Shown here one piece after another: positions 47,632 through 64,000 of a stretch of 64,000 nt of DNA; the stretch's first letter is position 1, and each line of letters starts with the position of its first letter. The stretch is from Eubacteriales bacterium (GTDB lineage Bacteria; Bacillota; Clostridia; Oscillospirales; CAG-272). The stretch lies in contig JAZSET010000073.1 in the NCBI GenBank assembly GCA_045531795.1, forward strand, positions 202-64,201, read 5' to 3'. The position numbers and the translations under genes are program-made. A model generated the notes under the pieces. That model saw only the letters and a program-made list of their open reading frames with translations, did no database searches and was not told the DNA's origin.

Positions 47632-48435
47632 ATGAGGGAATATTTTGAAGATTTCGGAAAGCCTTTTCCTGCAAGCGATGTCAGTTGGCGTTTGCAATAT
47701 GTAAACAAAGAGAAAATGCAAGGAATAGCTGTTCCTTACCTTGATGCCCGTGCCATTGCCGACAGACTTGATGAGGTAGTGGGACAGATGAATTGGAAGG
47801 ACAGTTACACCCCTTGGCACGATTGCACAGGAGGCAAAAAAACAAAACAGTCCCAGCTTTGCACCATTTCTATCTTCGATGCGGAAAATAATCAGTGGAT
47901 AGATAAAACAGACGGTGCAGAAGACAGTGATATTGAGCCAATCAAGGGCGGTCTCTCAGATGCCTTTAAGCGTGCTGCGGTGAAATGGAATATCGGAAGA
48001 TATTTGTATAGCTTCAGCACGGTTTGGGTAACTGCGGTAGAACGTGGCGATAGCTATGTTATAGCAGATTCGGAAAAATCAAAACTCGAAGATGCATATA
48101 ACAAACAGGTTGCAAAGATTTTTGGTGGCAGTGCACCTACTACCACTACAAAAGCACCTTCCCAAAAGCCCGATGTTACACCCGGTAATTCCGGACAGCC
48201 CGGTGCTGAAAAGCCTACCCAGAATGATGACATCTATGAAGTTCGCAAAATTCAGGTACAGGACAACCGCAGTTCTATTCTGCTTTTTGGAAACGGAAAA
48301 CAGTTCCAAGCATTTATGAATGGTACTGATGCCCGTTTACAGCCCGGTACCAGAATTAAAAACATCAATGCTCAAAAGGGTAAAAATGCTTACGGCAGTT
48401 ACGCAATACTCGGTTCTTATGATATTGCGGCTTAA
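47632..48435 (+). CDS. Rad52/Sak-like single-strand annealing protein
   Basis: 'VPYLDARAIADRLDEVVGQMNWKDSY' and 'GGLSDAFKRAAVKWNIGRYLY' match the Rad52/22 family signature. Confidence 0.65.
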   Translation: MREYFEDFGKPFPASDVSWRLQYVNKEKMQGIAVPYLDARAIADRLDEVVGQMNWKDSYTPWHDCTGGKKTKQSQLCTISIFDAENNQWIDKTDGAEDSDIEPIKGGLSDAFKRAAVKWNIGRYLYSFSTVWVTAVERGDSYVIADSEKSKLEDAYNKQVAKIFGGSAPTTTTKAPSQKPDVTPGNSGQPGAEKPTQNDDIYEVRKIQVQDNRSSILLFGNGKQFQAFMNGTDARLQPGTRIKNINAQKGKNAYGSYAILGSYDIAA

Positions 48436-48449
48436 GGAAAGGGACGGTT

Positions 48450-50210: not shown

Positions 50211-51295
50211 CAAGCTTTGTATATGATACTTTCGATATTGTGGATGTTGCCGCACGCCTTGGTATCAAATTCCACCCTACACAAAGTAATAATGTGGAGT
50301 ATAAGGCTTTATGTCCCTTTTGCTCGGATACTAAATATCATTTGGGAATTAACAGAAGTAAAGAAAAGTTCAACTGCTTTAAGTGCGGAGAACACGGTAA
50401 CAGCGTTACTCTGTATGCAAAGATAAATGGCATCTCAAACAAGGAAGCACACAGGCTTCTTAAACTTGAAGAAGAGAGGTCGGAATTTAAGCCGATATAT
50501 TTTCCGCCTGTGGAGTCCGAAGCACCAATTCGTCCGATTGAGGACCGACATAAAGTGTACTATGATTTTCTGAATCTTCTTCGATTAAACAGAGGGCATA
50601 TGCTTAATCTGCAAAATCGAGGGCTTGACTTTTCGGATATCTACACCTTTATGTATAAGAGTGTACCGACAGATAATGTGTCAAGACGCGAAGTGCTTGA
50701 AGCACTCTCGGCAAAACACGATCTGACAGGCATTCCGGGCTTTTGGTATGACGAAAAGGGTACGGCTCATATGTACTACAATAAACTTGGCGGTATTTTC
50801 ATTCCCGTTTGCAATAAGGAAGGGTATATACAAGGTCTTCAAATGAGACTTGATGTTTCCGAATATTCAAGCGAAAAGAAATTCCGCTGGTTTTCAAGCC
50901 GACACTTTGACGGCGGTACAGGTGCAAAGCCGTGGATTCATGTTGTAGGAGATACTTCATCAAAAGAGATTTGTCTTACTGAGGGAGCGATGAAGGCAGA
51001 TATTGCAAGTGTACTTTCAAATGGCAGACTTTTTGCTGCCGTTCCGGGAGTTAATGCAATCGCCTTTCTTCCCGAAGTTTTGAGCGAACTTGGCATAACA
51101 AAGGTGTATGAAGCTTTTGATATGGACAAACGCTCAAAGCCCGAAGTAAAGCAGGCACTTATTGCTTTAAGAACGACTTTATTTCAAAACGGAATTGAAT
51201 GTGAGAGCTGTTCGTGGAATCCCTTGTATAAGGGTATCGACGATTATATGCTTGCAAGAACAAAACTGGCACAGAATATGCCCATTGCGGCATAG
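50207..51295 (+). CDS. DNA primase (CHC2 zinc finger + Toprim-like domain)
   Basis: 'CPFCSDTKYHLGINRSKEKFNCFKCGEHG', then 'CLTEGAMKADI' and 'EAFDMDKR' (Toprim Glu and DxD). Confidence 0.75.
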   Translation: MTSFVYDTFDIVDVAARLGIKFHPTQSNNVEYKALCPFCSDTKYHLGINRSKEKFNCFKCGEHGNSVTLYAKINGISNKEAHRLLKLEEERSEFKPIYFPPVESEAPIRPIEDRHKVYYDFLNLLRLNRGHMLNLQNRGLDFSDIYTFMYKSVPTDNVSRREVLEALSAKHDLTGIPGFWYDEKGTAHMYYNKLGGIFIPVCNKEGYIQGLQMRLDVSEYSSEKKFRWFSSRHFDGGTGAKPWIHVVGDTSSKEICLTEGAMKADIASVLSNGRLFAAVPGVNAIAFLPEVLSELGITKVYEAFDMDKRSKPEVKQALIALRTTLFQNGIECESCSWNPLYKGIDDYMLARTKLAQNMPIAA

Positions 51296-51312
51296 TTGAA
51301 AGGAATAAAAAT

Positions 51313-52314
51313 ATGAGTAAATCAATGGAACAGTTTATGGTGGTAAATTCAGCTACAGGCGAAGAACAGGGTATTTTGGGTAAGTATATGTACTACTCTC
51401 TTCCCAAGCTCATTGTCAAAGCGGAAAAGGTAAAGGAAATCTGCGATCAGATTGGCTTTCCCTTTCTCTTAAAGGATAACATTCCGGTAAGCGATGCCTT
51501 CAGAAGTGCTACGGGAGATATACACGACAGAATTGAAGAATCCTTCGGGGACGAAATCAAGATATGTCGTATATATTGCCGTGATAACAAGAAGGTCGAT
51601 GCCGATGTTCTTTCCCGTGAGCTTGTAGAAGAAACTCTTTACGAGAGCACAAACACTTACCGCAAGCTTGCCAACATAACCCTTGACAAAAAGACGGGTT
51701 CTCTTGTTTTATCCGATGTGGATTATTCTTCAGACAGAAACATTCTCGGATATTTTGAACAGGCGGAAAGGCTTTTCAAGTTATACAAGGACTGTGTAGG
51801 CAACAGAAATATCGAAAATCTTGCAGAAAAGTATGTTTTCTCGATGCACGCAATAGGTATCGCCGCAAGAGGACATCACTACTTTGTCCCCAAAGCATAT
51901 ATGCACGAGATAGCTTTGCTTGAGGAATTTTTAGAGCTAATAGGCAAAGAAAACCTCTTTACTTATTCAAGCAATCGTGATGCTACATATATCAGTATCA
52001 ACTCGATGTATGTTATTGACGATGCAAAGCAGAGAGGAAAAATGTCAAATGAGTTCTACAAGGATATGGGACGCGAGATTGAGGAGTACCAAAAGCGTAT
52101 GATATCCCTCATTCAAAGCGGAAACAGCAGTCAGAGAATACTTGACCGCTGGGAAGCAAAAATATCCACCCTTGAGCAGAAAAAGCGTGAATATGAAACC
52201 ATACTCAAGCAGGATCTTTCCGGCGTAGATGAAGAATTTACAATGCTTCGTGATATGTGCAATCAGTTTAAGCTAACTGTACGCAGTTCACAAGTATTCG
52301 GCGCCGTAGCTTGA
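51313..52314 (+). CDS. Hypothetical protein (333 aa)
   Basis: ORF with an RBS. No motif recognised. Confidence 0.5.
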   Translation: MSKSMEQFMVVNSATGEEQGILGKYMYYSLPKLIVKAEKVKEICDQIGFPFLLKDNIPVSDAFRSATGDIHDRIEESFGDEIKICRIYCRDNKKVDADVLSRELVEETLYESTNTYRKLANITLDKKTGSLVLSDVDYSSDRNILGYFEQAERLFKLYKDCVGNRNIENLAEKYVFSMHAIGIAARGHHYFVPKAYMHEIALLEEFLELIGKENLFTYSSNRDATYISINSMYVIDDAKQRGKMSNEFYKDMGREIEEYQKRMISLIQSGNSSQRILDRWEAKISTLEQKKREYETILKQDLSGVDEEFTMLRDMCNQFKLTVRSSQVFGAVA

Positions 52315-52368
52315 AACCAAAACGGAGAGTGCAGGTAAAACTGCACTCTCTCTAAAATGGAGGTACAT

Positions 52369-52668
52369 ATGACAGGAAGTATGAGCATAGGCAAAATCAA
52401 ACCCGTTGGTAGAATTGATTATCTCGGTTCAAACGGCAAAATTGGTGAAAGGTTTTATTCTTTTAACGAAGAGGATTTCCTTAAGACCGTAAAAAACGAT
52501 AATTATTACGGAGTCCCTATGGTTATCAATGTTTACCGAGATGAAAACGGCAAAACTATTCCGCTTGATTTTTTGTTAAGCATTGATCCACCCGTACAGG
52601 GCTTCCACATTCTTGATTATGAAGGAGAATTTGAATATGGTAAAAATACAGAACTTATCGCAGCTTAA
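52369..52668 (+). CDS. Hypothetical protein (~99 aa)
   Basis: GGAGG lies 6 nt upstream of the ATG at 52369. Confidence 0.45.
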   Translation: MTGSMSIGKIKPVGRIDYLGSNGKIGERFYSFNEEDFLKTVKNDNYYGVPMVINVYRDENGKTIPLDFLLSIDPPVQGFHILDYEGEFEYGKNTELIAA

Positions 52669-52951
52669 AAAGGCATTACAAGTCGGCGCAGAATACACAA
52701 TGGTTGCTCACAAAAACAGACCTGACTGTGTTGGTCTTATCCGTGTTGTAAATGCCGTTCAAAGTAACTGTGTTTACTGTAAAATTAAGAACCAGCCTGT
52801 ACACCCGTATTCCAATATGAACGGCGGTCTCGGTATACGTATGGATTTTGAAAAGTCATCTCATTATGAGTTTGGCAATACCGTCAAATTCTATTTGAGT
52901 TCTGACAAATCCTCACCGTTTTACGAGTTTGTGGTTCTAAAGACAGCATAA
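52637..52951 (+). CDS. Hypothetical protein (~104 aa)
   Basis: 'gaaggag' RBS before the ATG at 52637. Overlaps the upstream gene by 32 nt. Confidence 0.45.
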   Translation: MVKIQNLSQLKKALQVGAEYTMVAHKNRPDCVGLIRVVNAVQSNCVYCKIKNQPVHPYSNMNGGLGIRMDFEKSSHYEFGNTVKFYLSSDKSSPFYEFVVLKTA

Positions 52952-52962
52952 AGGAGTTTTAT

Positions 52963-53202
52963 ATGGAAGTAAAAACCGAAACAGACAGCAATTGGAGAAC
53001 AACGGAAACAATAATTCTCAGCGACGAGGAAAAAGAAGCGATAAACGAAGCTCACGAAATAGTGGCTCAAAGATACAAGGATATGGGGCTTATTCAGAAA
53101 CCTTGGGAAAAAGACCACCTTGAATATCGTTTTCTTGGAATTCTTCGCTATGAAGGAATTGAAGCCATGTTGAACTTTGCGAGAACTGCAAGAATGAAAT
53201 AG
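52963..53202 (+). CDS. Hypothetical protein (79 aa)
   Basis: aaggag RBS. No motif recognised. Confidence 0.45.
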   Translation: MEVKTETDSNWRTTETIILSDEEKEAINEAHEIVAQRYKDMGLIQKPWEKDHLEYRFLGILRYEGIEAMLNFARTARMK

Positions 53203-53211
53203 GAGAAAAAT

Positions 53212-53739
53212 ATGGATAACAAAGAATATGTATGTTACTGCGTCGGCGACAAATACGATAAGGTCATGAAAGGCGACGGTGCGATTTTTGAAATGAATGA
53301 GGATAAGTGTTTTATCAATATTGGATTTACCGATATTTCAGAAGCAGAAATACAGGCAATCAGTCAGGGAAAGCTTAATATTTTCCTTAGTGTAATTGAA
53401 GGCGTTGTTTTTGTTTCGGCTTCATTTGATAATAAGCTTATTATGGATATGCCCTTTAACGCAGGGCTTTATCCCGATTTCAACATTAAAAATCCGGCAC
53501 CTTTCGGATATATTGTGCCGATAATTGCGGTTGATAACAGAACAAACATTATCAAGGCGATTCGTGTGGTAGGTTTTGATGCCGAGTTTAGTGCAAAGCT
53601 TTATGCTTTTGCAGAAAAACAATGGAGTGACAAGATTACCAACCACGATGAGCGAGTCGAGAGTGTTTATAAGCGTTATTCTCCAACCGACATTATTAAA
53701 CACGCAATTCTTAAAAACAAAGTGGAGGAAATACTGTGA
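53212..53739 (+). CDS. Hypothetical protein (175 aa)
   Basis: aggag RBS. No motif recognised. Confidence 0.45.
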   Translation: MDNKEYVCYCVGDKYDKVMKGDGAIFEMNEDKCFINIGFTDISEAEIQAISQGKLNIFLSVIEGVVFVSASFDNKLIMDMPFNAGLYPDFNIKNPAPFGYIVPIIAVDNRTNIIKAIRVVGFDAEFSAKLYAFAEKQWSDKITNHDERVESVYKRYSPTDIIKHAILKNKVEEIL

Positions 53740-54032
53740 AAAAAAGGAACAGAGTCTATCAGAGACTTGATAACGACTATCGCAAGTTTCGTAATGAAAT
53801 GCTTTCCAAAGATCCGGAAGAACTGTTCGACAGAGCCTATAAGGTTTTCTGCATAACGGAATTCTATTCGTATCTTACCGATTCATACGAACTTACGCCA
53901 CAGTCGGTATCATTCATTCTGAGTTTTAAGGGGAATGTTTTTGAGCAGCTTTACTATGAGTGGCTTAGAAGCGATTATACACACAGAGAGGTTTTTGAAG
54001 AAGTAATAGACAGTACCTTGTGTGCTGCCTAA
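53736..54032 (+). CDS. Hypothetical protein (98 aa)
   Basis: GTG start overlapping the upstream stop. This is the last gene before a strong terminator. Confidence 0.45.
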   Translation: MKKRNRVYQRLDNDYRKFRNEMLSKDPEELFDRAYKVFCITEFYSYLTDSYELTPQSVSFILSFKGNVFEQLYYEWLRSDYTHREVFEEVIDSTLCAA

Positions 54033-54104
54033 TTTGGAATACTTAAAATAATAGAAGAAGCATGGCAAAACTATGAAAACTCTTAAAATTCACATGTAAT
54101 AGCC

Positions 54105-54146
54105 AAAAAAGTGGGCGGTTCAATTCTGAATTGCCCACTTTTTTGT
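54105..54146 (+). terminator. Intrinsic terminator at the right edge of the element
   Basis: aaaaaagtgggc/gcccactttttt stem with a T-run. Confidence 0.8.
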
Positions 54147-54244: not shown

Positions 54245-54432
54245 AAGTCTTATATGTGGACACAGATTTTTTAAGATAAGTAAGATTAGCATATTGAAGA
54301 GGAACATCTGAAATGTAACAGCTATCTAAAATACAACAAATATCCGAAGGTGCGAAATCCGCAGTATTGTGCTGCAATTAAAAAATAATACGCAGGTGAA
54401 AAGATAAGTTTAACTTATTGAATGGTCAAGAT

Positions 54433-54487
54433 AAGTCAGACAAGCCAATGTGAGAAAAGAGCGTTGGTTTGTCTGGCTTATTTTTTT
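54433..54487 (+). terminator. Strong intrinsic terminator with no upstream ORF
   Basis: 16-bp stem aagtcagacaagccaa/ttggtttgtctggctt with two G-U pairs, followed by T8. Confidence 0.75.
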
Positions 54488-54503
54488 GCAAAAAAAATTT
54501 TTT

Positions 54504-54530
54504 AACCATGACAGCAGTTGTCAGGTTTAA
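54504..54530. promoter_or_regulatory. 27-bp palindromic site, copy 1 (candidate operator)
   Basis: aaccatgacagcagttgtcaggtttaa, with imperfect inverted arms AACC(A)TGACA-N5-TGTCAGGTT. It is identical to 59865-59891 and lies 33 nt upstream of the HTH gene. Confidence 0.55.
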
Positions 54531-54563
54531 CAGATAAACTGTGTTCGGAAAGGAGGAATATAT

Positions 54564-54929
54564 ATGGGAACGGCTGAACGAAGGCACGAAATAATGCGAG
54601 TTTTATGTCGGAGAAGATACGAAACAATCAAAAATTTAGCGAATGAGTTCGGCGTTTCAGAAAGAACCCTTGCGCGAGATATTGAGATGCTAAGCCTAAC
54701 TGAACCTATTTATACAAAGCAAGGAAAACACTGCGGCGGCGTGTACGTGATGGATGGATTTTCCATGACACGAATGTATATGAAAGACACAGAACTTGCT
54801 GTACTTCAAAAGCTTTCAAACAGTGTTTATGATGATGCTGTTTGTCGGCTTGATACGGCTGAACGCTTAATACTTAAAAACATAATCTCGCAGTACACAA
54901 AACCTACAACAAAAAAAGGAGAATTGTAA
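54564..54929 (+). CDS. HTH transcriptional regulator (DeoR/HTH_11-like N-terminal domain)
   Basis: 'RRHEIMRVLCRRRYETIKNLANEFGVSERTLARDIEML'. aaggagg RBS upstream. Confidence 0.65.
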   Translation: MGTAERRHEIMRVLCRRRYETIKNLANEFGVSERTLARDIEMLSLTEPIYTKQGKHCGGVYVMDGFSMTRMYMKDTELAVLQKLSNSVYDDAVCRLDTAERLILKNIISQYTKPTTKKGEL

Positions 54930-55996
54930 TGAAAAAACAAGAAAAAGAACTATTCAAAGCCTTGTGTAGCTTTAAGTCTGAGGAATTTGATGAAAGTTTA
55001 CTTCAAGCTGCAACCCCCGTTGTTTTGGGACATTTATTTTTTAACCGTATGCAGGCGGTTGCTTACGGGGTGTTGAAAAAGCATAGCCTTTTGGGAAAGG
55101 TAAACCGAGAATTCAGAAACTCTCTTAAAGGAGCGTATGAGCAAAATCTTGAAAAGAACAGAAGTTTCTTTTGGTGTATTAGTCACGTGGAAGAAGTGCT
55201 TTCTAAATGCGGTGCTAAATATGCAATGCTGAAAGGTGCTTATCTGTGCAAGGCGTATCCCGAGGGCTTCCGCACCTCTAACGACATTGATTTGCTCGTA
55301 CACCCCAAGGATGTAACCGAAATCGGCAATGCATTGTTATCTGCCGGTTTTAAGCAAGGTAATATCCGTAACGGCAGTTTTATCCCTGGCACTCGAAAGG
55401 AAATCATTGAATCAAAAATGATGCGAGGAGAAACTGTTCCGTATATTAAGGAAATAGGCTTACCGGGAATGCAGTTTTTAGAGGTGGATATCAACTTTTC
55501 TCTCGACTATAAGCCCGGTGATACTGTACTTTTAGAGGATATGATTGAAAACACCTCTGTCAGAGAAATTGGCAATCTTAAGGTTCGTACCTTGAGAGAT
55601 TATGATTTCTTTGTACACCTTTGCAGTCATCTTTACAAGGAAGCCACAACACTTCCGTGGGTAGAAATGATGAGAGATATGACACTCTACAAATATGCGG
55701 ATATTTATATGCTGCTCAGTGATATGACCGAGATGAAAGTTGATGCATTGTTTGCGAGAGCAACGCAAACGAATACCGAAAAAATATGTGCTTTTACGGT
55801 AACTCAAATGTCGGAGCTTTTTAAATTCACAAATTCTTATGCAGTAGAAAAAGCCAATGAAATTTTAAAGAGCGAACCCGATTTTATCCATACTATTGTT
55901 TCTCCTAAGGATAAAAAGAAACTTGTTTTTACTGAAAAAAGTGTAGAAACAAGATTCTTTGCCGATAACCGAAAAAGTCTTTTAGAGGAGGTGTAA
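54929..55996 (+). CDS. Nucleotidyltransferase-fold protein (uncharacterised NTase family)
   Basis: 'FRTSNDIDLLVHPKD' is a pol-beta-type NTase motif and 'FLEVDINFS' lies downstream. The start overlaps the HTH gene stop. Confidence 0.55.
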   Translation: MKKQEKELFKALCSFKSEEFDESLLQAATPVVLGHLFFNRMQAVAYGVLKKHSLLGKVNREFRNSLKGAYEQNLEKNRSFFWCISHVEEVLSKCGAKYAMLKGAYLCKAYPEGFRTSNDIDLLVHPKDVTEIGNALLSAGFKQGNIRNGSFIPGTRKEIIESKMMRGETVPYIKEIGLPGMQFLEVDINFSLDYKPGDTVLLEDMIENTSVREIGNLKVRTLRDYDFFVHLCSHLYKEATTLPWVEMMRDMTLYKYADIYMLLSDMTEMKVDALFARATQTNTEKICAFTVTQMSELFKFTNSYAVEKANEILKSEPDFIHTIVSPKDKKKLVFTEKSVETRFFADNRKSLLEEV

Positions 55997-56000
55997 TATA

Positions 56001-56636
56001 ATGAAATCTTTAAATATGAGACCGAATGAAACAAACGGCTTTCTTTTTACCTTCTGCGGACTTGATGGGTGCGGAAAAACATCAAATTTGACAAAGCTTA
56101 AGGAAGAAATTGAAAAAGAATATCCTGTATTGCTTACTAAGCAGCCTACCAATGCAGTCCGTAATTCCGATATTTTCAGAACATATATGGATTGTCCTGA
56201 CCATTCTGCTTATGATTACCGCAGTTTATCATTGCTTGCGGCAAGCGACCGTTTGCAGCACGGAAGTAAGGTGATTGAGCCGGCGATGCGTGAAGGAAAA
56301 ATCGTTATCAGCGATAGATATTTTTATTCCTGCCTTGCTAACTTACATGCCAGAGGTTTTGAAAAAGACGAGTGGATTTATGAGATTGCCGAATCGATTG
56401 TAAGACCTGATGTTGCCTTTTTCTTTGATGTACCGGTTGAAATCGCAGTCCAGCGTGTTCGCAGTCGTCCCGAAGAAAAGGACCGATATATTGATATGGA
56501 ATTGCAGTATAAGCTCCATGATGAGTATATCGAAATATGTGAAGCAAATAACGGCGTGCTTGTTCCAACGGATGTTTCATTTGAGGAAAGCTACGCTATT
56601 GTAAAAAAAGAAGTAGAAAGGGTGATAAACAGATGA
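56001..56636 (+). CDS. Thymidylate-kinase-like nucleotide kinase
   Basis: P-loop 'FCGLDGCGKTS', 'ISDRYFYS' (DRY/S motif), and the lid region 'RVRSRPEEKDRY'. Confidence 0.65.
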   Translation: MKSLNMRPNETNGFLFTFCGLDGCGKTSNLTKLKEEIEKEYPVLLTKQPTNAVRNSDIFRTYMDCPDHSAYDYRSLSLLAASDRLQHGSKVIEPAMREGKIVISDRYFYSCLANLHARGFEKDEWIYEIAESIVRPDVAFFFDVPVEIAVQRVRSRPEEKDRYIDMELQYKLHDEYIEICEANNGVLVPTDVSFEESYAIVKKEVERVINR

Positions 56637-56878
56637 ATATTGAAAAAAAGGTAAAAAACATTTTATCTGAACTCAGCGGCGAAGAGGGAATTTCTAATGA
56701 AACAACTCTTCAAAACGATTTGGCTCTTGACAGTCTTTCGATGGTAACTCTACTTGTTGAAATCGAGGATGTTTTTGAAATTCAGCTTGACGAGGCGGAT
56801 ATGAACCCCTTTGATTTCGAGACTGTACAAAGCGTTATAGATATGGTTGCAAAATATGTAGGTGATGAATATGAATAA
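56633..56878 (+). CDS. Acyl/peptidyl carrier protein
   Basis: 81 aa. 'LALDSLSMVTLLVEIED' contains the DSL phosphopantetheine-attachment motif. Confidence 0.75.
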   Translation: MNIEKKVKNILSELSGEEGISNETTLQNDLALDSLSMVTLLVEIEDVFEIQLDEADMNPFDFETVQSVIDMVAKYVGDEYE

Positions 56879-57896
56879 GATAGTTGATTTGCCTCTCGTT
56901 GAGCCGTTGTATAGCACTTATCATCATCAGGGACCGTGCACGGCTATTATCAAGGATAATCCGACGATCCGAAATTGGTACTTAAATCAAGTTATGAATT
57001 TGTCCTGTAACCGAAAATTTTTAAGTGGATTTACTACTCCCGAAATAACAATACCGGATTCCTCTTGGTCTGTTAATCCGTATTTTGATAGGCAGTGGTG
57101 TTCCACACGTTTTGCAAAAGGTCATATACACTATATTATTCGTGAAATGTTGAATCAGGGTTATTATGTAGCCTTTAGCGGCATTGACGACTATTACATC
57201 GAAGGCAAAAGTTGGTATAAAGAACGTCATTTTAGTCACGACGGTCTTATTTGCGGCTACAACAAAGATGACAAGACATTTTGTGTTTACTCTTATGACA
57301 GTAACTGGGTTTACAGAAAGTTTTGGACACCTCAAAAATGCTTTAATCAATCAAGAAAGGCTATGCTGAAAAAAGAAACAATATCCAATTTTTGCGGATT
57401 AAAAGCAAAGGGAGATAATGTAGCGTTTTTTCCTGAAACAGTTTGCACAAAACTTAAAGAATATCTTGATTCTGATTTAAAGAAATATCCGTTTGACGGT
57501 GAAGGAAACGTTTTCGGCATTGTTGTTCATGAGTTTATTGCTGAGTATGTTACTAAATTGCACAATGGATCCATTCCCTATGAAAGAATGGACAGACGAG
57601 TTTTCAGGCTTATTTGGGAGCATAAAAAGGCTATGCTTGAGCGTATTCACGCTCTTGAGGAAGCACTTGAAATCAACAAACGGTACGGTAAACAGTATGA
57701 GCAGATTGTAGCAGAAGCTGATAAAATGCGTATGCTTTATGCCTCTCATCATATGCGCCGTAGAGATTCTGTCTTGCCTATTATTCGTGAAAAATTACTG
57801 ACTCTTTCGGTAAATGAAAGAAAAATACTCACATTGCTTGTAAGAGCAGTAGAAAAGGAGTTGAAGAAAAATGCTATGGGAACACCTGAAAAGTAA
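56865..57896 (+). CDS. Hypothetical protein (~343 aa) between the carrier protein and AMP-ligase genes
   Basis: The ORF overlaps the carrier gene stop. No catalytic motif was recognised with confidence. Several ATG/GTG starts are possible (56862-56871). Confidence 0.5.
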   Translation: MNMNKIVDLPLVEPLYSTYHHQGPCTAIIKDNPTIRNWYLNQVMNLSCNRKFLSGFTTPEITIPDSSWSVNPYFDRQWCSTRFAKGHIHYIIREMLNQGYYVAFSGIDDYYIEGKSWYKERHFSHDGLICGYNKDDKTFCVYSYDSNWVYRKFWTPQKCFNQSRKAMLKKETISNFCGLKAKGDNVAFFPETVCTKLKEYLDSDLKKYPFDGEGNVFGIVVHEFIAEYVTKLHNGSIPYERMDRRVFRLIWEHKKAMLERIHALEEALEINKRYGKQYEQIVAEADKMRMLYASHHMRRRDSVLPIIREKLLTLSVNERKILTLLVRAVEKELKKNAMGTPEK

Positions 57897-59235
57897 AATG
57901 CAATCTAATTTCTCACAGAAAATTTGTGAGGGAAAAGCAGAGATAACTTACGAGGAAACCATCATTTTTGCTGAGGAATTTGCAAAGAAATTGATTGGTA
58001 TCAAATGCTGTGCTATACTTTGTGGTTCTGAAATGGCGGCAGCGTTGGCATTACTTAGCTGCTTTGCGGCAGACGTTACTGCACTACCGCTTTCACAACG
58101 GTACGGTGAGCTTCATTGCAATAAAATTCTTGATGCAATTAGTCCGGATGCTTTGATTACCGACCAAGGTGGTGAGCTTAAGGTTGTTCGTTTAAGTTAC
58201 TCGAGATATACTTTTTCCCAAATTAAACCGGCTCTTATTATGTGTACTTCCGGCACCACAGGAATGCCAAAGGGTGCAATGCTTACCGAAAGCAATGTAC
58301 TTACAAATGTAACGGATATTGTAGCTTATTTTAACATGAATGAAAGCGACACAATTCTTATATCCCGTCCGTTGTATCACTGTGCCGTTTTAACGGGTGA
58401 GTTTTTAAGTGCACTTGTCAAAGGGGTTAAAATCCGATTTTATTCGGGAACATTTAATCCGACACTTGTTCTGAAACTATTGAAGGATTATTCCATAACC
58501 GCCTTTTGCGGCACACCTACACTTATAAGTATGATGGCTCGCTTTAAACGAAAAATAGATGATGACTGCTTAAAGTATATTTGCATCAGCGGTGAGTGTA
58601 TGGGAGCAGAAACAGGCAAACAAATTCGCAAGGCTTTTCCTAATGCCGATATTTATAACATTTACGGTCTTACCGAGGCGTGTCCCCGTGTGTCATATTT
58701 ACCACCTGAATTGTTTGATGATTACCCTGATTGTGTCGGAATTCCGCTTAATTCGGTTGCCGTTAAAATTCTGCTTGACGACGGCAGCATAGCTGAGCCT
58801 AATCAGGTAGGCGTTTTATGGGTAAAAGGCGGTAATGTCATGGCAGGATACTACAACAATCCCAAGAAAACCGCCGAGGCTATAAAAGACGGTTGGCTTT
58901 GCACCGGTGATTTGGCACTAATCAATAGCAAGGGTTTGCTTAAAATCAAAGGCCGCAATGACGATATGATTATTAAAGCGGGAATGAACATCTATCCGCA
59001 GGAAATCGAAAGTGCACTTAAAATTGACAACCGTGTTAAAGAAGCACTTATTCTTGCTGAAAATGATGAACGCTTAGGTGTACAACTGGTACTTAACATT
59101 GTGGGAGATTTTGACGATGCAAGACAAGTCAAAGAACTGTGTCAGGCTTGCTTGCCTGCATATCAGGTGCCGACAAAAATCAATTTAGTTACTGAGTTGC
59201 CTAAGAACGGCTCGGGGAAAATTATAAGAAGATGA
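57871..59235 (+). CDS. AMP-dependent synthetase/ligase (adenylate-forming enzyme)
   Basis: 'CTSGTTGMPKGAMLT', 'YGLTEA', 'GWLCTGDLA', 'KIKGRNDDMIIKAGMNIYPQEIE', 'PKNGSGKIIR'. Confidence 0.85.
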   Translation: MLWEHLKSKMQSNFSQKICEGKAEITYEETIIFAEEFAKKLIGIKCCAILCGSEMAAALALLSCFAADVTALPLSQRYGELHCNKILDAISPDALITDQGGELKVVRLSYSRYTFSQIKPALIMCTSGTTGMPKGAMLTESNVLTNVTDIVAYFNMNESDTILISRPLYHCAVLTGEFLSALVKGVKIRFYSGTFNPTLVLKLLKDYSITAFCGTPTLISMMARFKRKIDDDCLKYICISGECMGAETGKQIRKAFPNADIYNIYGLTEACPRVSYLPPELFDDYPDCVGIPLNSVAVKILLDDGSIAEPNQVGVLWVKGGNVMAGYYNNPKKTAEAIKDGWLCTGDLALINSKGLLKIKGRNDDMIIKAGMNIYPQEIESALKIDNRVKEALILAENDERLGVQLVLNIVGDFDDARQVKELCQACLPAYQVPTKINLVTELPKNGSGKIIRR

Positions 59236-59239
59236 GTTT

Positions 59240-59782
59240 ATGAAGGAATTTGAAATAAAGAGAATGCTTAGTGAGGAAACTTACAATCATCTTCGCAAGC
59301 ATTGGGGAGATGGAAAATCTCCGATCATTCAGACCAATTATTATTTCGATACGGATTCTCTTGATATGAATAGGCAAGGTATCACTTGTCGGATTCGGCT
59401 TAAGGACGGTATTTATAAGGCAACTGTGAAGAGTCATGTTATCGAAGTCTCGAATTGCAGTCTTGAAGAAGACCTGTCCGAAAAAGCCTATTTAGACACA
59501 TCAGTGTTTTTGTCACGCGGTCTTCATTTGCAGGGTGAGCTAATAACGGAGAGAATTATTTTGTTCAAGGATAATGCTTGCGAAATAATGCTTGACCGCA
59601 ACAGCTATTTGGGTGTGGTTGATTATGAGCTGGAAATTGAATATCGTTTAGGCTTTGAGCAAAAGGCAACAGGCTTGCTTAATGAAATTATTGTCGAGCT
59701 ATTACAACACGGATTTGATGTAAGCCGTGAGGAAATGCGAGGCGAATCCAAGTCTGAACGCTTCTTTAAAAGAAAATCATAG
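59240..59782 (+). CDS. CYTH-domain (triphosphate tunnel metalloenzyme) protein
   Basis: N-terminal 'EFEIKR' (ExExK), 'RIRL', and the C-terminal 'YELEIEY' acidic strand. Confidence 0.6.
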   Translation: MKEFEIKRMLSEETYNHLRKHWGDGKSPIIQTNYYFDTDSLDMNRQGITCRIRLKDGIYKATVKSHVIEVSNCSLEEDLSEKAYLDTSVFLSRGLHLQGELITERIILFKDNACEIMLDRNSYLGVVDYELEIEYRLGFEQKATGLLNEIIVELLQHGFDVSREEMRGESKSERFFKRKS

Positions 59783-59864
59783 TTAAGAACGTGAGAAGGA
59801 TATTTGATTATCAGATAGATTCGATTGAGTATGAAAAATTAAAATATTTTTCAATAACCATTTC

Positions 59865-59891
59865 AACCATGACAGCAGTTGTCAGGTTTAA
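59865..59891. promoter_or_regulatory. 27-bp palindromic site, copy 2 (candidate operator)
   Basis: Identical to 54504-54530. Lies upstream of the DUF1906-like/RHS genes. Confidence 0.55.
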
Positions 59892-59975: not shown

Positions 59976-60794
59976 ATGGCATGTAAAGGTGCAAAAAACA
60001 AAACCGCTTCTGTTGAAGCAACACAGGTGGCAGCAGCCGCAGTTCAGACAGAGATTCAAAAAGCAGAGGCGAGGGCTTCTGTTGGCAGACTTTTGTTCGG
60101 TGTGGATTCTAAAATCCAAGCAGGAGATATTTTGCAAAACAATATTTCATTATTTGAATGGGTAGTTCGCAATAAGGTATATCCTAACTTTTGGGGTAGA
60201 AACCTTGTGGGTGAAAATGCGCTTACAAAGAACGAAATCGCATTTATTCATTCAAAGGGCTGTAAGATAGCTACTATCTATACAGATTCCGGCGAAAAGA
60301 AGACTGAGGAACAGGGCAAAATCGTTGCAAAGAAAATTGATGTTGTTGCTCTTGAACTCGGTATCCCCGAAGGAACGGCAGTGTTCCTTGAAGTGGTTGA
60401 CGGGGAGAATATAAGTCGCGATTATATGAAAGGCTTTGCAGCAGGTCTTGAGGAGGAAGGCTTTGTTCCCGGCTTTAAGGCAAATACTGATGCGAAGTTC
60501 GGATTTGACCGTGAGTTCAGTCGTGGCCTTCAGACCGACCATGAAATCTTTGATAAGTGTCTTGTATGGGCAATTTCTCCAAGTCTTAAAGAATATGACC
60601 GTGTGACCACCACTCATCTTATTCATCCGGATAACTGGATGCCTTATGCTCCGTCCGGTATCACCCGTAAAGATATTGCTGTATGGCAGTACGGTAAAAA
60701 CTGTCACCCTATTGAAGATGATATGGGTAAGATAACCACATTTAATCTCAATCTTGTAAATAACGAACAGGTTATCGTGGAAAAAATGTTTTAA
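59976..60794 (+). CDS. DUF1906 / Rv2525c-like glycoside-hydrolase-fold protein
   Basis: 'FWGRNLVGENALTKNEIAFIHSKGCKIATIY', 'GIPEGTAVFLEV' and 'WQYG' follow the DUF1906 pattern. The ATG at 59976 is preferred over the track start at 59922. Confidence 0.45.
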   Translation: MACKGAKNKTASVEATQVAAAAVQTEIQKAEARASVGRLLFGVDSKIQAGDILQNNISLFEWVVRNKVYPNFWGRNLVGENALTKNEIAFIHSKGCKIATIYTDSGEKKTEEQGKIVAKKIDVVALELGIPEGTAVFLEVVDGENISRDYMKGFAAGLEEEGFVPGFKANTDAKFGFDREFSRGLQTDHEIFDKCLVWAISPSLKEYDRVTTTHLIHPDNWMPYAPSGITRKDIAVWQYGKNCHPIEDDMGKITTFNLNLVNNEQVIVEKMF

Positions 60795-60808
60795 GGAGGT
60801 AAAAGACT

Positions 60809-63800
60809 ATGTGTAATGGTAATAATAATTACTGTCCCGACAATAATTACTATCCCGAGAATAATTACTGTCCCGACAATAATGACTGTTCCGAGAATAA
60901 TTACTGTCCCGACAATAATGACTGTCCTGACAATAATGACTGTCCTGACGACAATTGCCCCGGAGGTAATACCGGAAATCCGTCCGTTGTGTGCGTTAGT
61001 TCGGTAAGCATTTCTTCAGGTAATGTAACTATAAAAAAGGGCAGTTGGAGTTACCCAAGCGTACAAGTATACCCTAATAATGCTACCAACAAAACACTTT
61101 ATTGGTATAGCTCCAATTCTGCCGTGGCTTCTGTAAATTCAAACACGGGATATATTTACGCCAACGGTGTTGGTACTGCAAGAATTTATGCACAGGCAAC
61201 CGACGGCAGCGGTTGCAGTGATTACATTACTGTCACCGTTACAAGCGGAACTATATATGTTTCCTCTGTGGAGCTTAACAGAAGCTATGTTTCTATTGAA
61301 AAAGGAAAAACATATACTCTTTCAGCTACGGTATGTCCTACTAATGCAAGCAATAAATTGCTTGCATGGAGCAGTAGCAATACTTCTGTTGCAACTGTTA
61401 GTTCGAGCGGTGTAGTAACCGCAAAAGCTTGCGGATATGTAACCATTACCGCAACTGCAAAAGACGGTAGCGGTGCGTGCGATTGTTGTGACTTTTACAT
61501 TACAGGCGATACGCTTGTAAACTCGGTTTCTTTAAGCCCCTCAAGCAAAACTATCAGCGTTGGAGATTCTTTTTGGGTATATGAAACTATATGTCCTACT
61601 AATGCTACAAACTGTGCAGTTACTTGGAGTACAAGTAATTCAAGTGTTGCAACCGTAACTCAAAGCGGACTTGTTATTGCTCAGGGTGCAGGCAGTGCGA
61701 CTATTACGGCAACTGCTCAAGATGGAAGTGGGAAAAAGGGTTATTGCTATGTAACGGTTAAAGGCACAGTTTGTGTGGAAAGTGTTGAAGTAAGTCGTTC
61801 GTCATTGACACTATATAAGGGAAACACATATACCTTATCTGCTACAGTTTGCCCGACAAATGCCAATAACAGAAGTGTTCGTTGGAGCAGTGGAAATACA
61901 TCAATTGCTACTGTAAGCTCAAGTGGTCTGGTAACCGCAAAGACCGCAGGTAGAGTTGCGATATATGCGACAGCCAAAGATGGCAGTGGATGTAGCGACT
62001 ATTGTTGGGTGACTGTTAAAACGATTCCCGATCCCGTTTACACACCGGCACAGGAGGAAATTCCTGAGAGCAAGGTTCCCGAAAGTACATTTGAAGACCC
62101 GATAGATATGTACAGCGGTGCTCATACTCTTAAAAACACATTGCTCACATTGTTTGGCGGTCAGGGAACAAAGCTTGTTGCTGAGTATAATTCAACCAGA
62201 TTATCTGAAGGTGATTTTGGCAAAGGCTGGTATCATAATTTTGAGAAAACTCTTGAATTTGACGGCTGTGAAGCGAGAGTATATAGCTCGCCTTCGACAT
62301 ATTCGAGATACACCTCGAATGATGATTGCACAGTATTTACTTGTACTGCTGCCAATAAGAACAACTTTGTTCTTACTGTAAACACGGCGAATACTTTACC
62401 GTATTCAATTGACTGTAACAAGGAAAGAACCGAGTATTATGACAGTGAAGGCCGTTTGGCAAAAATTGTTGACCATCAAGGCTTTGAAACGGTTATTTCT
62501 TATTCGGATACCCTTATTACAATTACCGACTCTGTGTCGGGCAAAAAGCTCTATCTTGAAAAGGATTCTTCCTGCAAGGTTGTAAGAGTGTATGATGAAA
62601 ATTCCCGTCAGGTTACATTAACCTATACAGGCGAGCTTTTAACTGCTATTTGTGATGCAAACGGCAATACTTTAAGCTATACCTATAACGAGGACGGCCA
62701 GGTTTTGACCGGTACTGACTCTAACGGCATCTGCTATTTTACAAATACATATGATGAAATAGGCAGAGTGGCTACACAAAAGGATGGTATAACCGGCTCG
62801 ATTACATCATCTGTCACTTATGAGGACGCAGGTAAGCGAATTTGTACGAACCGTAACGGAAAGACGAGTATCCGTGTGTTTAACGGCAACGGCTTGCTTA
62901 CAAGCTTTACCGATGAAAACGGAAAGACAAAGACATATACCTATGACAGTCGTTATAATGTAATCAAGGAAACCGATGCATTGGGTAATTCAGTGGTCAA
63001 GGAATATAACTCCTTTAATAAGCCTACTGTTATTATCGATAAGAACGGGGGTAAGACTTACTTTACTTATGATTCTAAGGGTAATGTAACTAAAATCACC
63101 TATCCAAAAATTGGTGAGGTTGCACCGTCTGAAAGCTTTGTATATAACGAAAGAAGCCAAATAACTTCTCATACTGATGTTCGCGGCAACGTTACGGTAT
63201 TTACCTATGATGTAAGTGCAATGCCGCTAACCAAAAAGGTTGGAAGCAGAAATGCAATTCAGTATTCTTATGAGGGTGGCTTACTTAAAGCACAAACAGA
63301 TGCTTTAGGCAATACTACTCAGTATAGCCACAATGCAATCGGTCAGGTAATAACCAAAACCGATGCTGATAACAAGGCTACAACTTACGAATACGATGCT
63401 TGCGGAAATCTGCTTAAAACAACCGATGCGAACGGTCAGTCTGTTGTAACAACCTATGACGGCAACCACCAAAAGACCTCTGTTACCGATGCGCTTGGCA
63501 ACAAAACTGAGTATACCTATAACGGCAATATGAAGAATACCCTTGTCAAGTTCCCTGACGGCAATACGGTGTCTTATGAGTATGATGGTGAGGACAGACC
63601 CATTAAAACCACCGACCAGGCAGGTAATGTTACTACTGTTCAGTATGATAGTGTTGGCAGAGCAGTTTCGAAGCACTTTGCAGACGGCAGTGTGGTTAAT
63701 TACGAGTATGATGCTATAGGTAACATTGTAAAGGAAACCAACCCCAAGGGTGCAGTAACTCTTAAAACCTATGACGGCAACGGCAATGTATTGTCTGTAA

Positions 63801-64000
63801 CCGATAATGATGGTAACATTACTCGCTACCAGTATAATGCTCTCGGTAAGGTTGTTAGAAGTGTAAATGCCATGTCTGGTGCTACCGTATATGAATATTC
63901 ATCTGCAGGAGATTTGTTATCCGAAACCGACCCGCTGGGTAACAAAAAGGTTTATACCTACGATGCCTTCGGTAATATGCTGACTGCAAGGGATGCAAAA
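60809..64000 (+). CDS. Large Big_2 + RHS/YD-repeat protein (polymorphic toxin), 5' part; ORF open to the end of the window
   Basis: aaggagg RBS. My own translation in the frame of the ATG at 60809 has no stop before 64000. It shows four Big_2-type repeats ('VCPTNA..N..V.WSSSN.SVATVSSSGLVTAK') and then many YD repeats ('YTYNEDGQVLTGTD', 'YEYDACGNLLKTTDANG', 'YEYDAIGNIVKETNPKG'). It is absent from the ORF track because there is no stop codon. Confidence 0.8.
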   Translation, partial: MCNGNNNYCPDNNYYPENNYCPDNNDCSENNYCPDNNDCPDNNDCPDDNCPGGNTGNPSVVCVSSVSISSGNVTIKKGSWSYPSVQVYPNNATNKTLYWYSSNSAVASVNSNTGYIYANGVGTARIYAQATDGSGCSDYITVTVTSGTIYVSSVELNRSYVSIEKGKTYTLSATVCPTNASNKLLAWSSSNTSVATVSSSGVVTAKACGYVTITATAKDGSGACDCCDFYITGDTLVNSVSLSPSSKTISVGDSFWVYETICPTNATNCAVTWSTSNSSVATVTQSGLVIAQGAGSATITATAQDGSGKKGYCYVTVKGTVCVESVEVSRSSLTLYKGNTYTLSATVCPTNANNRSVRWSSGNTSIATVSSSGLVTAKTAGRVAIYATAKDGSGCSDYCWVTVKTIPDPVYTPAQEEIPESKVPESTFEDPIDMYSGAHTLKNTLLTLFGGQGTKLVAEYNSTRLSEGDFGKGWYHNFEKTLEFDGCEARVYSSPSTYSRYTSNDDCTVFTCTAANKNNFVLTVNTANTLPYSIDCNKERTEYYDSEGRLAKIVDHQGFETVISYSDTLITITDSVSGKKLYLEKDSSCKVVRVYDENSRQVTLTYTGELLTAICDANGNTLSYTYNEDGQVLTGTDSNGICYFTNTYDEIGRVATQKDGITGSITSSVTYEDAGKRICTNRNGKTSIRVFNGNGLLTSFTDENGKTKTYTYDSRYNVIKETDALGNSVVKEYNSFNKPTVIIDKNGGKTYFTYDSKGNVTKITYPKIGEVAPSESFVYNERSQITSHTDVRGNVTVFTYDVSAMPLTKKVGSRNAIQYSYEGGLLKAQTDALGNTTQYSHNAIGQVITKTDADNKATTYEYDACGNLLKTTDANGQSVVTTYDGNHQKTSVTDALGNKTEYTYNGNMKNTLVKFPDGNTVSYEYDGEDRPIKTTDQAGNVTTVQYDSVGRAVSKHFADGSVVNYEYDAIGNIVKETNPKGAVTLKTYDGNGNVLSVTDNDGNITRYQYNALGKVVRSVNAMSGATVYEYSSAGDLLSETDPLGNKKVYTYDAFGNMLTARDAK
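60824..60949 (+). repeat. Seven tandem 18-nt repeats encoding NN(Y/D)C(P/S)(D/E) hexapeptides at the RHS protein N-terminus
   Basis: aataattactgtcccgac and close variants, repeated head-to-tail and in frame with the 60809 ORF. Confidence 0.85.

Follow-up and report, generated by a model that had tools for sequence, protein, structure and literature searches.

The window analysed here is a stretch of 64,000 nucleotides (nt) from a Eubacteriales bacterium (contig JAZSET010000073.1, forward strand). Between positions 54564 and 59782 it carries, on the plus strand, seven genes whose open reading frames (ORFs) either overlap or lie 4 nt apart, and which are followed by the genes for an adaptor protein and an RHS toxin. 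By family the seven proteins comprise a regulator, an acyl-transfer trio and a phosphate/nucleotide trio. We regard this architecture as secure: the genes are held together by selection, and they are linked to RHS units by a common control element, a dyad of which the window holds two copies. The features of the locus are listed below (lengths in amino acids, aa; HTH stands for helix-turn-helix).

54504 to 54530, no strand assigned: dyad copy 1, proposed operator, 33 nt 5′ of the start codon of the HTH gene
54564 to 54929, plus strand: HTH_11 or DeoR-like winged-helix regulator, 121 aa (HTH_11, 30.7 bits in Pfam)
54929 to 55996, plus strand: PF14907 (NTP_transf_5) nucleotidyltransferase of the pol-beta fold, 355 aa (Pfam, 114.7 bits for a cut-off of 31.2)
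56001 to 56636, plus strand: P-loop kinase of the thymidylate-kinase fold with an altered substrate pocket, 211 aa (Pfam, 91.1 bits; TIGR00041, 100.6 bits for a cut-off of 83.25)
56633 to 56878, plus strand: acyl/peptidyl carrier protein, 81 aa (PP-binding, 40.3 bits), with phosphopantetheine attachment site LALDSLS
56871 to 57896, plus strand: BtrH/CcbD-like papain-fold transferase, predicted to be carrier-protein-dependent, 341 aa (from structure comparison and distant relatives)
57871 to 59235, plus strand: adenylate-forming (ANL) ligase of the acyl-CoA-ligase type, 454 aa (AMP-binding, 180.3 bits, and AMP-binding_C)
59240 to 59782, plus strand: CYTH triphosphate-tunnel enzyme of the YjbK/BH2851 type, 180 aa (CYTH, 52.5 bits for a cut-off of 23.2)
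59865 to 59891, no strand assigned: dyad copy 2, head of the RHS unit, 84 nt 5′ of the adaptor gene
59976 to 60794, plus strand: Rv2525c-like (glycoside-hydrolase-like) adaptor, 272 aa (Pfam, 35.3 bits), no signal peptide
60809 to 64000, plus strand: RHS/YD-repeat toxin, N-terminal 1063 aa, continuing past the end of the window, no signal peptide

The gene order is therefore regulator, PF14907 transferase, kinase, carrier protein, 341-aa protein, ligase and CYTH enzyme. The first two genes share nucleotide 54929, and the junctions that follow are 55996/56001, 56633-56636, 56871-56878, 57871-57896 and 59235/59240. The first-pass annotation of this DNA, made from its letters alone, had described seven tightly packed genes 5′ of an RHS toxin locus and quoted the motifs SNDIDLLV, GLDGCGKTS, DRYFYS, LALDSLS and EFEIKR. 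The ORFs are where it had put them, all five motifs are present, and the RHS gene at 60809 was recognised by its domains (see below). No signal peptide or membrane segment was found in any of the seven proteins. As a set, the operon had no match to a characterised pathway in Pfam, NCBIfam or PADLOC. Literature searches by Pfam name, by combinations of components, and for RHS proteins in Gram-positives or Oscillospiraceae returned no description of the gene set, and two comprehensive comparative studies of polymorphic toxins make no mention of these enzymes. The earlier proposal that a single operon mixes nucleotide handling with an acyl-activation pair, outside characterised pathways, is borne out in these databases and publications.

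Conservation of the operon was examined by scanning one genome per GTDB species, which yielded 80 loci. All were from gut or rumen assemblies of Clostridia (Oscillospiraceae, Acutalibacteraceae, Christensenellaceae and unclassified Eubacteriales). Genes were counted by tblastn in those 66 loci that had enough sequence to accommodate all seven: the complete set of seven, in the same order, was present in 43 of them, and six genes in another 15, the one lacking usually being the CYTH or the small HTH gene. The core made of transferase, kinase, carrier protein, BtrH-like protein and ligase was almost invariant. Three homologues on long contigs showed an identical gene order in unrelated surroundings, one after serine recombinases (L001), one after an ATP-synthase operon, and one after NusG, LytR and SpoIID genes. 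Conservation as a unit and travel with RHS loci, which had been suggested as a check, were both observed. The position of the operon at the junction with a mobile element, presented as a typical one, holds for this window, but not as a general trait, since elsewhere the operon follows the ATP-synthase operon or cell-wall genes. The gene set was not found in viral contigs. One operon without kinase and transferase genes (L079) was considered as well, and set aside as a disrupted copy with no informative replacement.

A distant variant (L170 1-11381; L171; L086) keeps the six enzymes in a changed order, with no HTH gene and no dyad. It encodes, successively, two ATP-binding cassette (ABC) exporters, the nucleotidyltransferase, a solute-binding lipoprotein, the kinase, the carrier protein, the ligase, the CYTH enzyme, a BtrH-like paralogue, the BtrH-like protein itself, and a CBM96/DNRLRE-like lipoprotein. 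The extra BtrH-like paralogue is devoid of the His-Asp pair described next.

The fifth gene had been started at 56865, and its product described as a 343-aa protein without recognisable motifs. Both points had to be revised. Most homologues are 341 aa long, which points to ATG 56871 as the likely start rather than 56865 or GTG 56862, and profile and structure comparisons relate the protein remotely to BtrH/CcbD-like transferases. The window protein, at 341 or 344 aa, matches no Pfam family, BtrH_N (PF14399) included. More than 863 homologues were collected at E <= 0.001, none of which carries a name or a Pfam domain, and a profile search against 1.84 billion cluster representatives gave 2,127 matches at the same threshold. 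Distant relatives do match BtrH_N, most of them just under the threshold, one of them above it (P0270, 30.9 bits for a cut-off of 29.7). An AlphaFold model of the protein (predicted local distance difference test, pLDDT, 86.3) consists of an N-terminal papain-like domain and a C-terminal helical domain. Over its full length, Foldseek aligned it with AziU2/U3 (E 1e-8) and CcbD (E 5e-6, template-modelling (TM) score about 0.54), the matches including the crystal complex of CcbD with the CcbZ carrier domain. The next match, a papain-like phytochelatin synthase, covered the N-terminal part only. Residues C46, H123 and D124 are invariant within the operon's own subfamily; in the wider family H123 and D124 remain invariant, and the Cys column is variable. 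The link with CcbD was obtained from structure comparison and not from sequence search, as searching solved structures with the sequence profile returned a single match, at chance level. Identity with CcbD/BtrH-type enzymes is about 10-14%. From species to species, the protein itself is about 58-81% identical. Finally, the gene overlaps that of the carrier protein on its 5′ side and that of the ligase on its 3′ side, and this trio is kept in related loci. We conclude from the model that the fifth protein is probably a remote BtrH/CcbD-type transferase, not a Pfam-level member, which would take an acyl group from the neighbouring carrier protein.

Two observations were made on other members of the fifth-protein family. 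In a 2,689-aa polyketide synthase-non-ribosomal peptide synthetase (P0252), a domain of this family is placed at the C-terminus, after the carrier domains, and this position suggests a role of the fold in chain release or transfer. Other members are encoded next to AgrB, or next to small ORFs and a radical-SAM enzyme (L169 82-2838; L173 9774-12925), in settings that look like peptide maturation.

The ligase has all its core motifs intact (TSGTTGMPKG, YGLTE, PKNGSGKIIR). Its best NCBIfam matches are to fatty-acid and MenE-type ligases, all under cut-off, and its nearest solved structures are feruloyl/fatty-acyl-CoA synthetase and MenE (o-succinylbenzoate-CoA ligase). The motif after the P-loop reads RPLYH, where we would expect FDxS in amino-acid-activating domains. 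This motif, together with the likeness to acyl-CoA ligases, makes a carboxylic acid a likelier substrate than an amino acid. The first-pass annotation had left the choice between an acylated and an aminoacylated product: the former is retained, the latter is less likely given that the ligase, judged from its sequence, is more likely of the acyl-CoA-ligase type than of the amino-acid A-domain type. Comparing the window ligase with that of an unrelated BtrH-like cluster gave nothing.

Ligase and carrier protein together are reminiscent of DltA and DltC, the DltC models of NCBIfam matching the carrier only under cut-off, and one could imagine that the operon modifies the cell envelope, by a Dlt-like D-alanylation of teichoic acids or by capsule decoration, and in doing so readies the wall for RHS display or shields the producer from its own wall-degrading adaptor. 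Wall-hydrolase-like neighbours (the Rv2525c-like adaptor; Amidase_2 in L080) and the membrane-anchored phosphoesterase of some versions of the operon would fit. Yet the operon encodes no DltB/MBOAT, no DltD, no glycosyltransferase, flippase or polymerase, its seven products are all soluble, and the ligase belongs with acyl-CoA ligases and not with the D-alanine-activating type, which makes envelope modification very improbable.

Closer parallels are found in antibiotic biosynthesis. Like the operon, lincosamide synthetase (CcbD/LmbD) and the butirosin proteins BtrH/BtrI combine a papain-fold transferase with a small carrier protein and an adenylating enzyme that stands alone, and in these systems the transferase moves the carrier-bound acyl group to the amine of a separate acceptor. 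Unlike them, the operon contains no sugar or amino-acid tailoring genes; the partners of the trio are instead a thymidylate-kinase-like kinase, a PF14907 transferase and a CYTH enzyme, and the setting is an RHS toxin island of gut Clostridia rather than an actinomycete antibiotic cluster. Closthioamide-type pathways, which are non-canonical thiotemplate pathways, also belong to Clostridia and use stand-alone enzymes and carrier proteins, with a papain-like, protease-type ligase (CtaG) replacing condensation domains (PMC12865890). Thioamide-forming and ATP-grasp genes are absent from the operon, whereas its nucleotide/phosphate enzymes and its RHS link have no described equivalent on the closthioamide side.

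We next consider the phosphate/nucleotide trio. The kinase has kept the GLDGCGKTS P-loop, the SDRYFYS motif and the LID arginines (QRVRSRPEEKDRY). Alignment with the Thermus thermophilus thymidylate kinase (5x7j) showed that TREPGG is changed to TKQPTN, and SLAYQG to CLANLH. From solved thymidylate kinases, we take TREPGG and the Gln of SxAYQG to be dTMP-binding motifs, the Gln reading thymine. Since these thymidine-reading residues are replaced, and the altered signature is conserved (it is still found in the distant variant, at 55% identity), the substrate is probably not dTMP. The sequence points to a kinase that probably phosphorylates another phosphate monoester.

In the PF14907 transferase, which includes the SNDIDLLV motif, residues S117, N118, D119, D121, E185 and D187 are invariant, among them the pol-beta catalytic carboxylates, and identity between species is about 70-78%. 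Its model (pLDDT 91.4) has as nearest folds the MenT1 toxin, ANT(2″)-Ia, TM1012 and LnuA, all of them weak matches (query TM <= 0.37) that do not separate nucleotidylation of RNA ends from that of small molecules; a search of solved structures by sequence gave no match. On a short contig, a close homologue (P0299, 567 aa, 75% identity) is fused to an Amidase_2 peptidoglycan-amidase domain, which is either real or a gene-calling artefact. The CYTH enzyme displays EFEIK (ExExK) at residues 3-7, and its closest solved structures are BH2851 (2gfg, E 1e-12) and 3sy3. Its gene is missing from about 14 of the 66 related operons, a true absence where the next gene abuts the ligase gene.

The kinase and PF14907 transferase pair also flanks the phosphoenolpyruvate mutase in a family of phosphonate gene clusters (PMC8942020). 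In the lasso-peptide cluster of pseudomycoidin, a kinase (PsmK) is likewise associated with an uncharacterised nucleotidyltransferase (PsmN), the two transferases being likened by their ANT(2″)-like fold, and PsmN decorates a residue only once the kinase has phosphorylated it (PMC6993621). The pseudomycoidin kinase is HPr-kinase-like and acts on a ribosomal peptide, whereas that of the operon is thymidylate-kinase-like. By analogy, this suggests that kinase and PF14907 transferase may form a recurring two-step module.

The operon had also been suspected of being a nucleotide-based signalling or defence module. It would then act independently, for instance against phages, and be merely co-located with RHS genes in conflict islands. 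The nearest fold of the pol-beta nucleotidyltransferase is a MenT toxin, a CYTH enzyme is present, the P-loop kinase has weak PADLOC matches (PDC-M51B, VakA), the regulator at the head resembles the N-terminus of WYL regulators of defence operons, and one genome contains two copies (L045, L072). However, PADLOC recognised no system and no effector, only generic HTH and kinase matches with none for the other five proteins, and no nuclease, pore-former or other effector is encoded. All the enzymes are under strong purifying selection, with 60-78% identity from species to species, where a defence system would be expected to diversify rapidly, and their set is absent from viral contigs. The fixed order and orientation with respect to RHS genes and the common dyad, both described below, are not expected from chance co-location either. 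We consider the defence reading improbable.

The dyad is what ties the operon to the toxin genes. A 27-mer (AACCATGACAGCAGTTGTCAGGTTTAA) is identical at 54504-54530 and 59865-59891, and copies extended to 31 nt differ by one base. The first-pass annotation had seen there two identical 27-bp palindromes bracketing the operon. Their identity stands; the palindrome is imperfect in the window (8/10 arm pairs), though near-perfect in most related loci; and the bracketing does not hold: copy 2 being placed 5′ of the adaptor gene, each copy stands at the head of a transcription unit of its own, and the pair does not delimit one element. The consensus is of 25 bp, AACCnTGACA-N5-TGTCAnGGTT. With up to 3 mismatches allowed, related loci totalling 1.38 Mb contain 112 occurrences of it, compared with a single one in shuffled sequence. 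It occurs within 150 nt 5′ of 45 of the 64 HTH genes, and the remaining copies mostly precede adaptor or RHS genes or lie at other places downstream of the cassette. In metagenome loci collected independently, starting from the adaptor, 35 of the 61 adaptor genes have a dyad within 200 nt on their 5′ side, and so do 7 of the 18 that have no operon nearby. There are three to five dyads per island, at a short distance 5′ of start codons and after terminators, each typically preceded by a strong hairpin and T-run ending the prior unit. Operons without an RHS gene have the upstream copy only. Presence of the dyad 5′ of the operon also follows that of the regulator, with 44 of 57 operons when an HTH_11 gene is present and 3 of 10 when it is not (Fisher p = 0.0057). 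This association, established on sequences, fits an operator for the HTH protein and speaks against ends of a mobile element.

The latter had to be considered, as two identical copies flank exactly seven genes, which could then be the cargo of a mobile cassette with attachment sites or terminal repeats at its ends; there is moreover a mobile element on the left of the window, and serine recombinases precede the L001 operon. But the copies are direct repeats of a dyad and not inverted ends, no integrase lies within the block, and neither the recurrence of the dyad before start codons, three to five times per island, nor its restriction to a single upstream copy in operons without an RHS gene, nor its association with the HTH gene speaks for cassette ends. 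This explanation is effectively excluded.

As to the regulator, it matches the N-terminal part of a WYL-regulator profile of PADLOC (E 1e-12). In quorum-regulated bacteriocin loci, and in operons headed by WYL/BrxR-type repressors, a small regulator likewise comes first; here one dyad precedes the regulator and each toxin unit. The operon differs from these loci by the lack of a peptide pheromone, of a histidine kinase and of a WYL sensor domain. The arms of the dyad fall into two compensatory classes, TGACA/TGTCA in 28 loci and GGACA/TGTCC in 15. A single assembly (JAZRNX01) contains two operons, L045 and L072, with dyads of different classes, one GGACA/TGTCC and one TGACA/TGTCA, which hints at two separately controlled regulons in one genome. 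In two related loci only (L062 6622-7899 and L066), a gene for a sigma-like regulator (HTH_16 and Sigma70_r4) stands in place of the HTH_11 gene, with that of a Phage_holin_4_1 holin before it, and the dyad is no longer present. A scan for sigma-70 promoters did not rise above the shuffled expectation and gave no convincing promoter at the dyad. Reading by eye TGACA as a -35 box and a conserved TAAACT as a -10 box gave spacings of 21 or 11 nt, which are unsuitable, and no promoter is claimed. Around the dyad and the upstream block, Rfam returned only chance miRNA-like matches on hairpins.

Downstream of the operon, the RHS protein of the window (ATG 60809) includes RHS_repeat, four Big_2 domains and DUF6531. 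Linkage was counted in the 48 loci with at least 6 kb of downstream sequence: a same-strand RHS gene was found in 37, and an intervening adaptor gene in 40, encoding either an Rv2525c-like protein or a 376-aa protein with a DNRLRE-like domain (NCBIfam, just under cut-off). The type of adaptor pairs with the N-terminus of the RHS protein, Rv2525c-like with Big_2, and the 376-aa protein with a DNRLRE-containing one. The Rv2525c-like adaptor gene lies directly ahead of a Big_2-type RHS gene. No signal peptide was detected in adaptors or RHS proteins. In the metagenome loci seeded on the adaptor, an RHS gene follows in 35 cases out of 36. Several RHS units may sit behind one operon. Full-length RHS proteins from two homologous loci (L001 and L003) differ in their C-terminal regions and are followed by small membrane proteins, the C-terminus of the window protein lying beyond the window. 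Operons with no RHS gene within 10 kb downstream also exist, often with a membrane-anchored calcineurin-like phosphoesterase beside the CYTH enzyme. Such a phosphoesterase is encoded next to CYTH in 9 loci (among them L023 5869-6780, L026, L074 12662-13552 and L083 12964-13821), with an N-terminal membrane helix in L023 and L074, and these are mainly the operons without a downstream RHS gene. In the window RHS gene, an 18-nt tandem repeat in 7 copies (60806-60973) encodes (NNxCPD)n at the N-terminus of the protein; it is not present in the L001 homologue, so that it represents a local expansion.

Release of the large C. difficile toxins depends on a holin and a wall hydrolase (TcdR, TcdE, TcdL). 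The RHS islands are similar to that system in having large signal-less toxins and an adjoining wall-hydrolase-like gene, as well as a holin and a sigma-like regulator in L062 and L066, and the seven-gene operon has no counterpart there.

Rv2525c-like adaptors (among them those at L031 5793-7115 and L080 14951-15796) start with an invariant Met-Ala-Cys (59976-59984 in the window), relaxed to M-[AV]-C-[KR] in distant members and lacking in the DNRLRE-type adaptors, and their residues 4-35 are variable. Judging from this pattern, the N-terminus could be a site of acylation or processing. This leads to another explanation for the operon, namely that its enzymes attach groups covalently to the adaptor, to the RHS protein or to a small peptide, such as an acyl group on an N-terminal amine, a Cys or a Lys, along with a phosphate-linked decoration, and so let signal-less toxins reach the membrane and exit. 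Besides the Met-Ala-Cys terminus, several facts agree with it: the operon heads RHS units in 37 of 48 loci; these RHS proteins and adaptors have no signal peptide; relatives of the fifth protein are found next to AgrB or to small ORFs and a radical-SAM enzyme; of the enzymes that resemble the PF14907 transferase only PsmN has been studied, and its target is a phosphorylated residue of a peptide; and in the distant variant a DNRLRE/CBM96-like protein is encoded directly 3′ of the transferase gene. On the other hand, that last protein is a Sec lipoprotein, beyond the reach of cytoplasmic enzymes, and the exporters of the same variant are typical for small molecules. Operons exist without RHS or adaptor genes nearby, two unrelated types of adaptor and RHS N-terminus are found behind the same highly conserved enzymes, and DNRLRE-type adaptors and RHS N-termini have no conserved Cys or motif in common. 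Also, among solved structures, the nearest relatives of the transferase are enzymes with small-molecule acceptors. On balance, we regard modification of proteins as a serious rival, though a less probable one than the explanation that follows.

We favour instead the synthesis of a small molecule: a regulator-headed operon for a cytoplasmic, carrier-protein-based acyl-transfer pathway, leading to an acylated phospho- or nucleotide-type compound, and placed in one regulon with the RHS weapon. Our confidence in this proposal is a little short of even. We infer from the data above what its chemical steps are, that the HTH protein binds the dyad, and what the product does. The ligase would adenylate a carboxylic acid and load it on the dedicated carrier protein, as expected from the families of both proteins. 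The BtrH/CcbD-like enzyme would then accept the acyl group, probably on Cys46, and hand it to an amine or hydroxyl of an acceptor. The phosphate part of the acceptor or product would be phosphorylated, nucleotidylated and trimmed by the kinase, the PF14907 transferase and, mostly, the CYTH enzyme. There is a precedent in altemicidin biosynthesis, where an intermediate that bears a nucleotide is acylated in a carrier-protein-dependent manner (PMC11685415). Given its position and co-occurrence with the regulator gene, the 25-bp dyad would be bound by the small HTH protein before its own operon and before the adjoining adaptor/RHS units; with a dyad common to both, enzymes and RHS toxins would be switched together. 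Our leading guess for the product, and the least secure element of the proposal, is an inducer or partner molecule of the RHS weapon, rather than a compound of general metabolism. It comes from the layout, which is like that of signal-regulated bacteriocin loci, in which the regulator and the enzymes come first and each toxin unit has the same box in front. The operons that stand alone, together with the exporter-equipped distant variant, favour a free small molecule over a chemistry confined to RHS proteins.

Several points weigh against this proposal. None of the seven proteins has a product, substrate or activity assigned to it. A secreted metabolite would usually come with an exporter and a gene for self-resistance, yet the canonical operon lacks the former and shows no obvious candidate for the latter. 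No ligand-binding domain was recognised in the HTH protein, of 121 aa only, and its role as a receptor is weak for that reason. The contexts in which BtrH-like relatives accompany peptides fit a peptide or protein acceptor equally well. The operon was found at most 10 kb 5′ of RHS-adaptor units in only 12 of 32 cases, remnants or more distant copies being present in three more; since such units are often without a nearby operon, the functional tie is not obligatory in cis. Lastly, the arms of the dyad change in a compensatory way with no accompanying residue change in the recognition helix of the HTH protein, as would be possible for a transcribed hairpin, and mismatches within the dyad lean mildly towards G-U-compatible ones (44 vs 26, p = 0.04), a spectrum that decides neither for a DNA operator nor for an RNA hairpin. 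All things considered, we hold a DNA operator to be roughly twice as probable as an RNA element.

A broader hypothesis, possible yet tentative, takes the operon as accessory machinery of the Sec-independent RHS toxins of gut Clostridia: it would either produce an acyl-nucleotide-type signal, sensed by the HTH/dyad regulon for collective firing, or put an acyl-phospho group on signal-less adaptor and RHS proteins for membrane access and exit. Both forms would amount to a novel means by which Gram-positives control or deliver polymorphic toxins. RHS toxins are widespread weapons. The operon heads RHS islands in at least 80 species-level genomes of gut Clostridia, from humans, ruminants and poultry. 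If it makes a signal or a cofactor, it would offer a handle on inter-bacterial antagonism in the gut, and the chemistry would be new, combining carrier-protein acyl transfer with a re-purposed thymidylate-kinase fold, a PF14907 transferase and a CYTH enzyme, and it would provide the first functional contexts for PF14907 and for the fifth-protein family (>2,000 cluster representatives). The superfamilies of the individual proteins are known, as is the design of the acyl-transfer trio. What is new is their combination, together with the re-purposing of the kinase, the link with RHS islands and the dyad held in common. On the most cautious reading, this is a well-defined and experimentally tractable gene cluster without a described product.

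Upstream of the operon, two more features complete the locus.

54104 to 54145, plus strand: strong intrinsic terminator with a 19-pair stem including 7 G-C pairs, closing the upstream mobile-element unit and forming the left limit of the locus
54428 to 54484, plus strand: long hairpin followed by a T-run, directly 5′ of dyad copy 1, within a non-coding block found conserved in cross-locus alignments

The terminator closes a unit whose last gene encodes DUF3848 (53736-54032). This left flank (47632-54032) has the look of a phage or conjugative element, with genes for Rad52/22, an SMC-like AAA ATPase, a CHC2 zinc-finger primase with DUF3854, DUF6744 and DUF3848. In about 14 loci, the conserved non-coding block is preceded by an ORF for a zinc-ribbon protein of about 60 aa (MDKKIFMASCPVCG...), of which none was seen in the window. 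The block itself (GAAGAGATAAGTTGGACTTGTTAA..AATCAAGA.GAACCTGGCAAAT), then the long hairpin and T-run, are found 5′ of the dyad at 54379-54500 in the window, at 7395-7700 in L003, and in L016, L026, L083 and others, and the arms of its hairpin resemble half-sites of the dyad.

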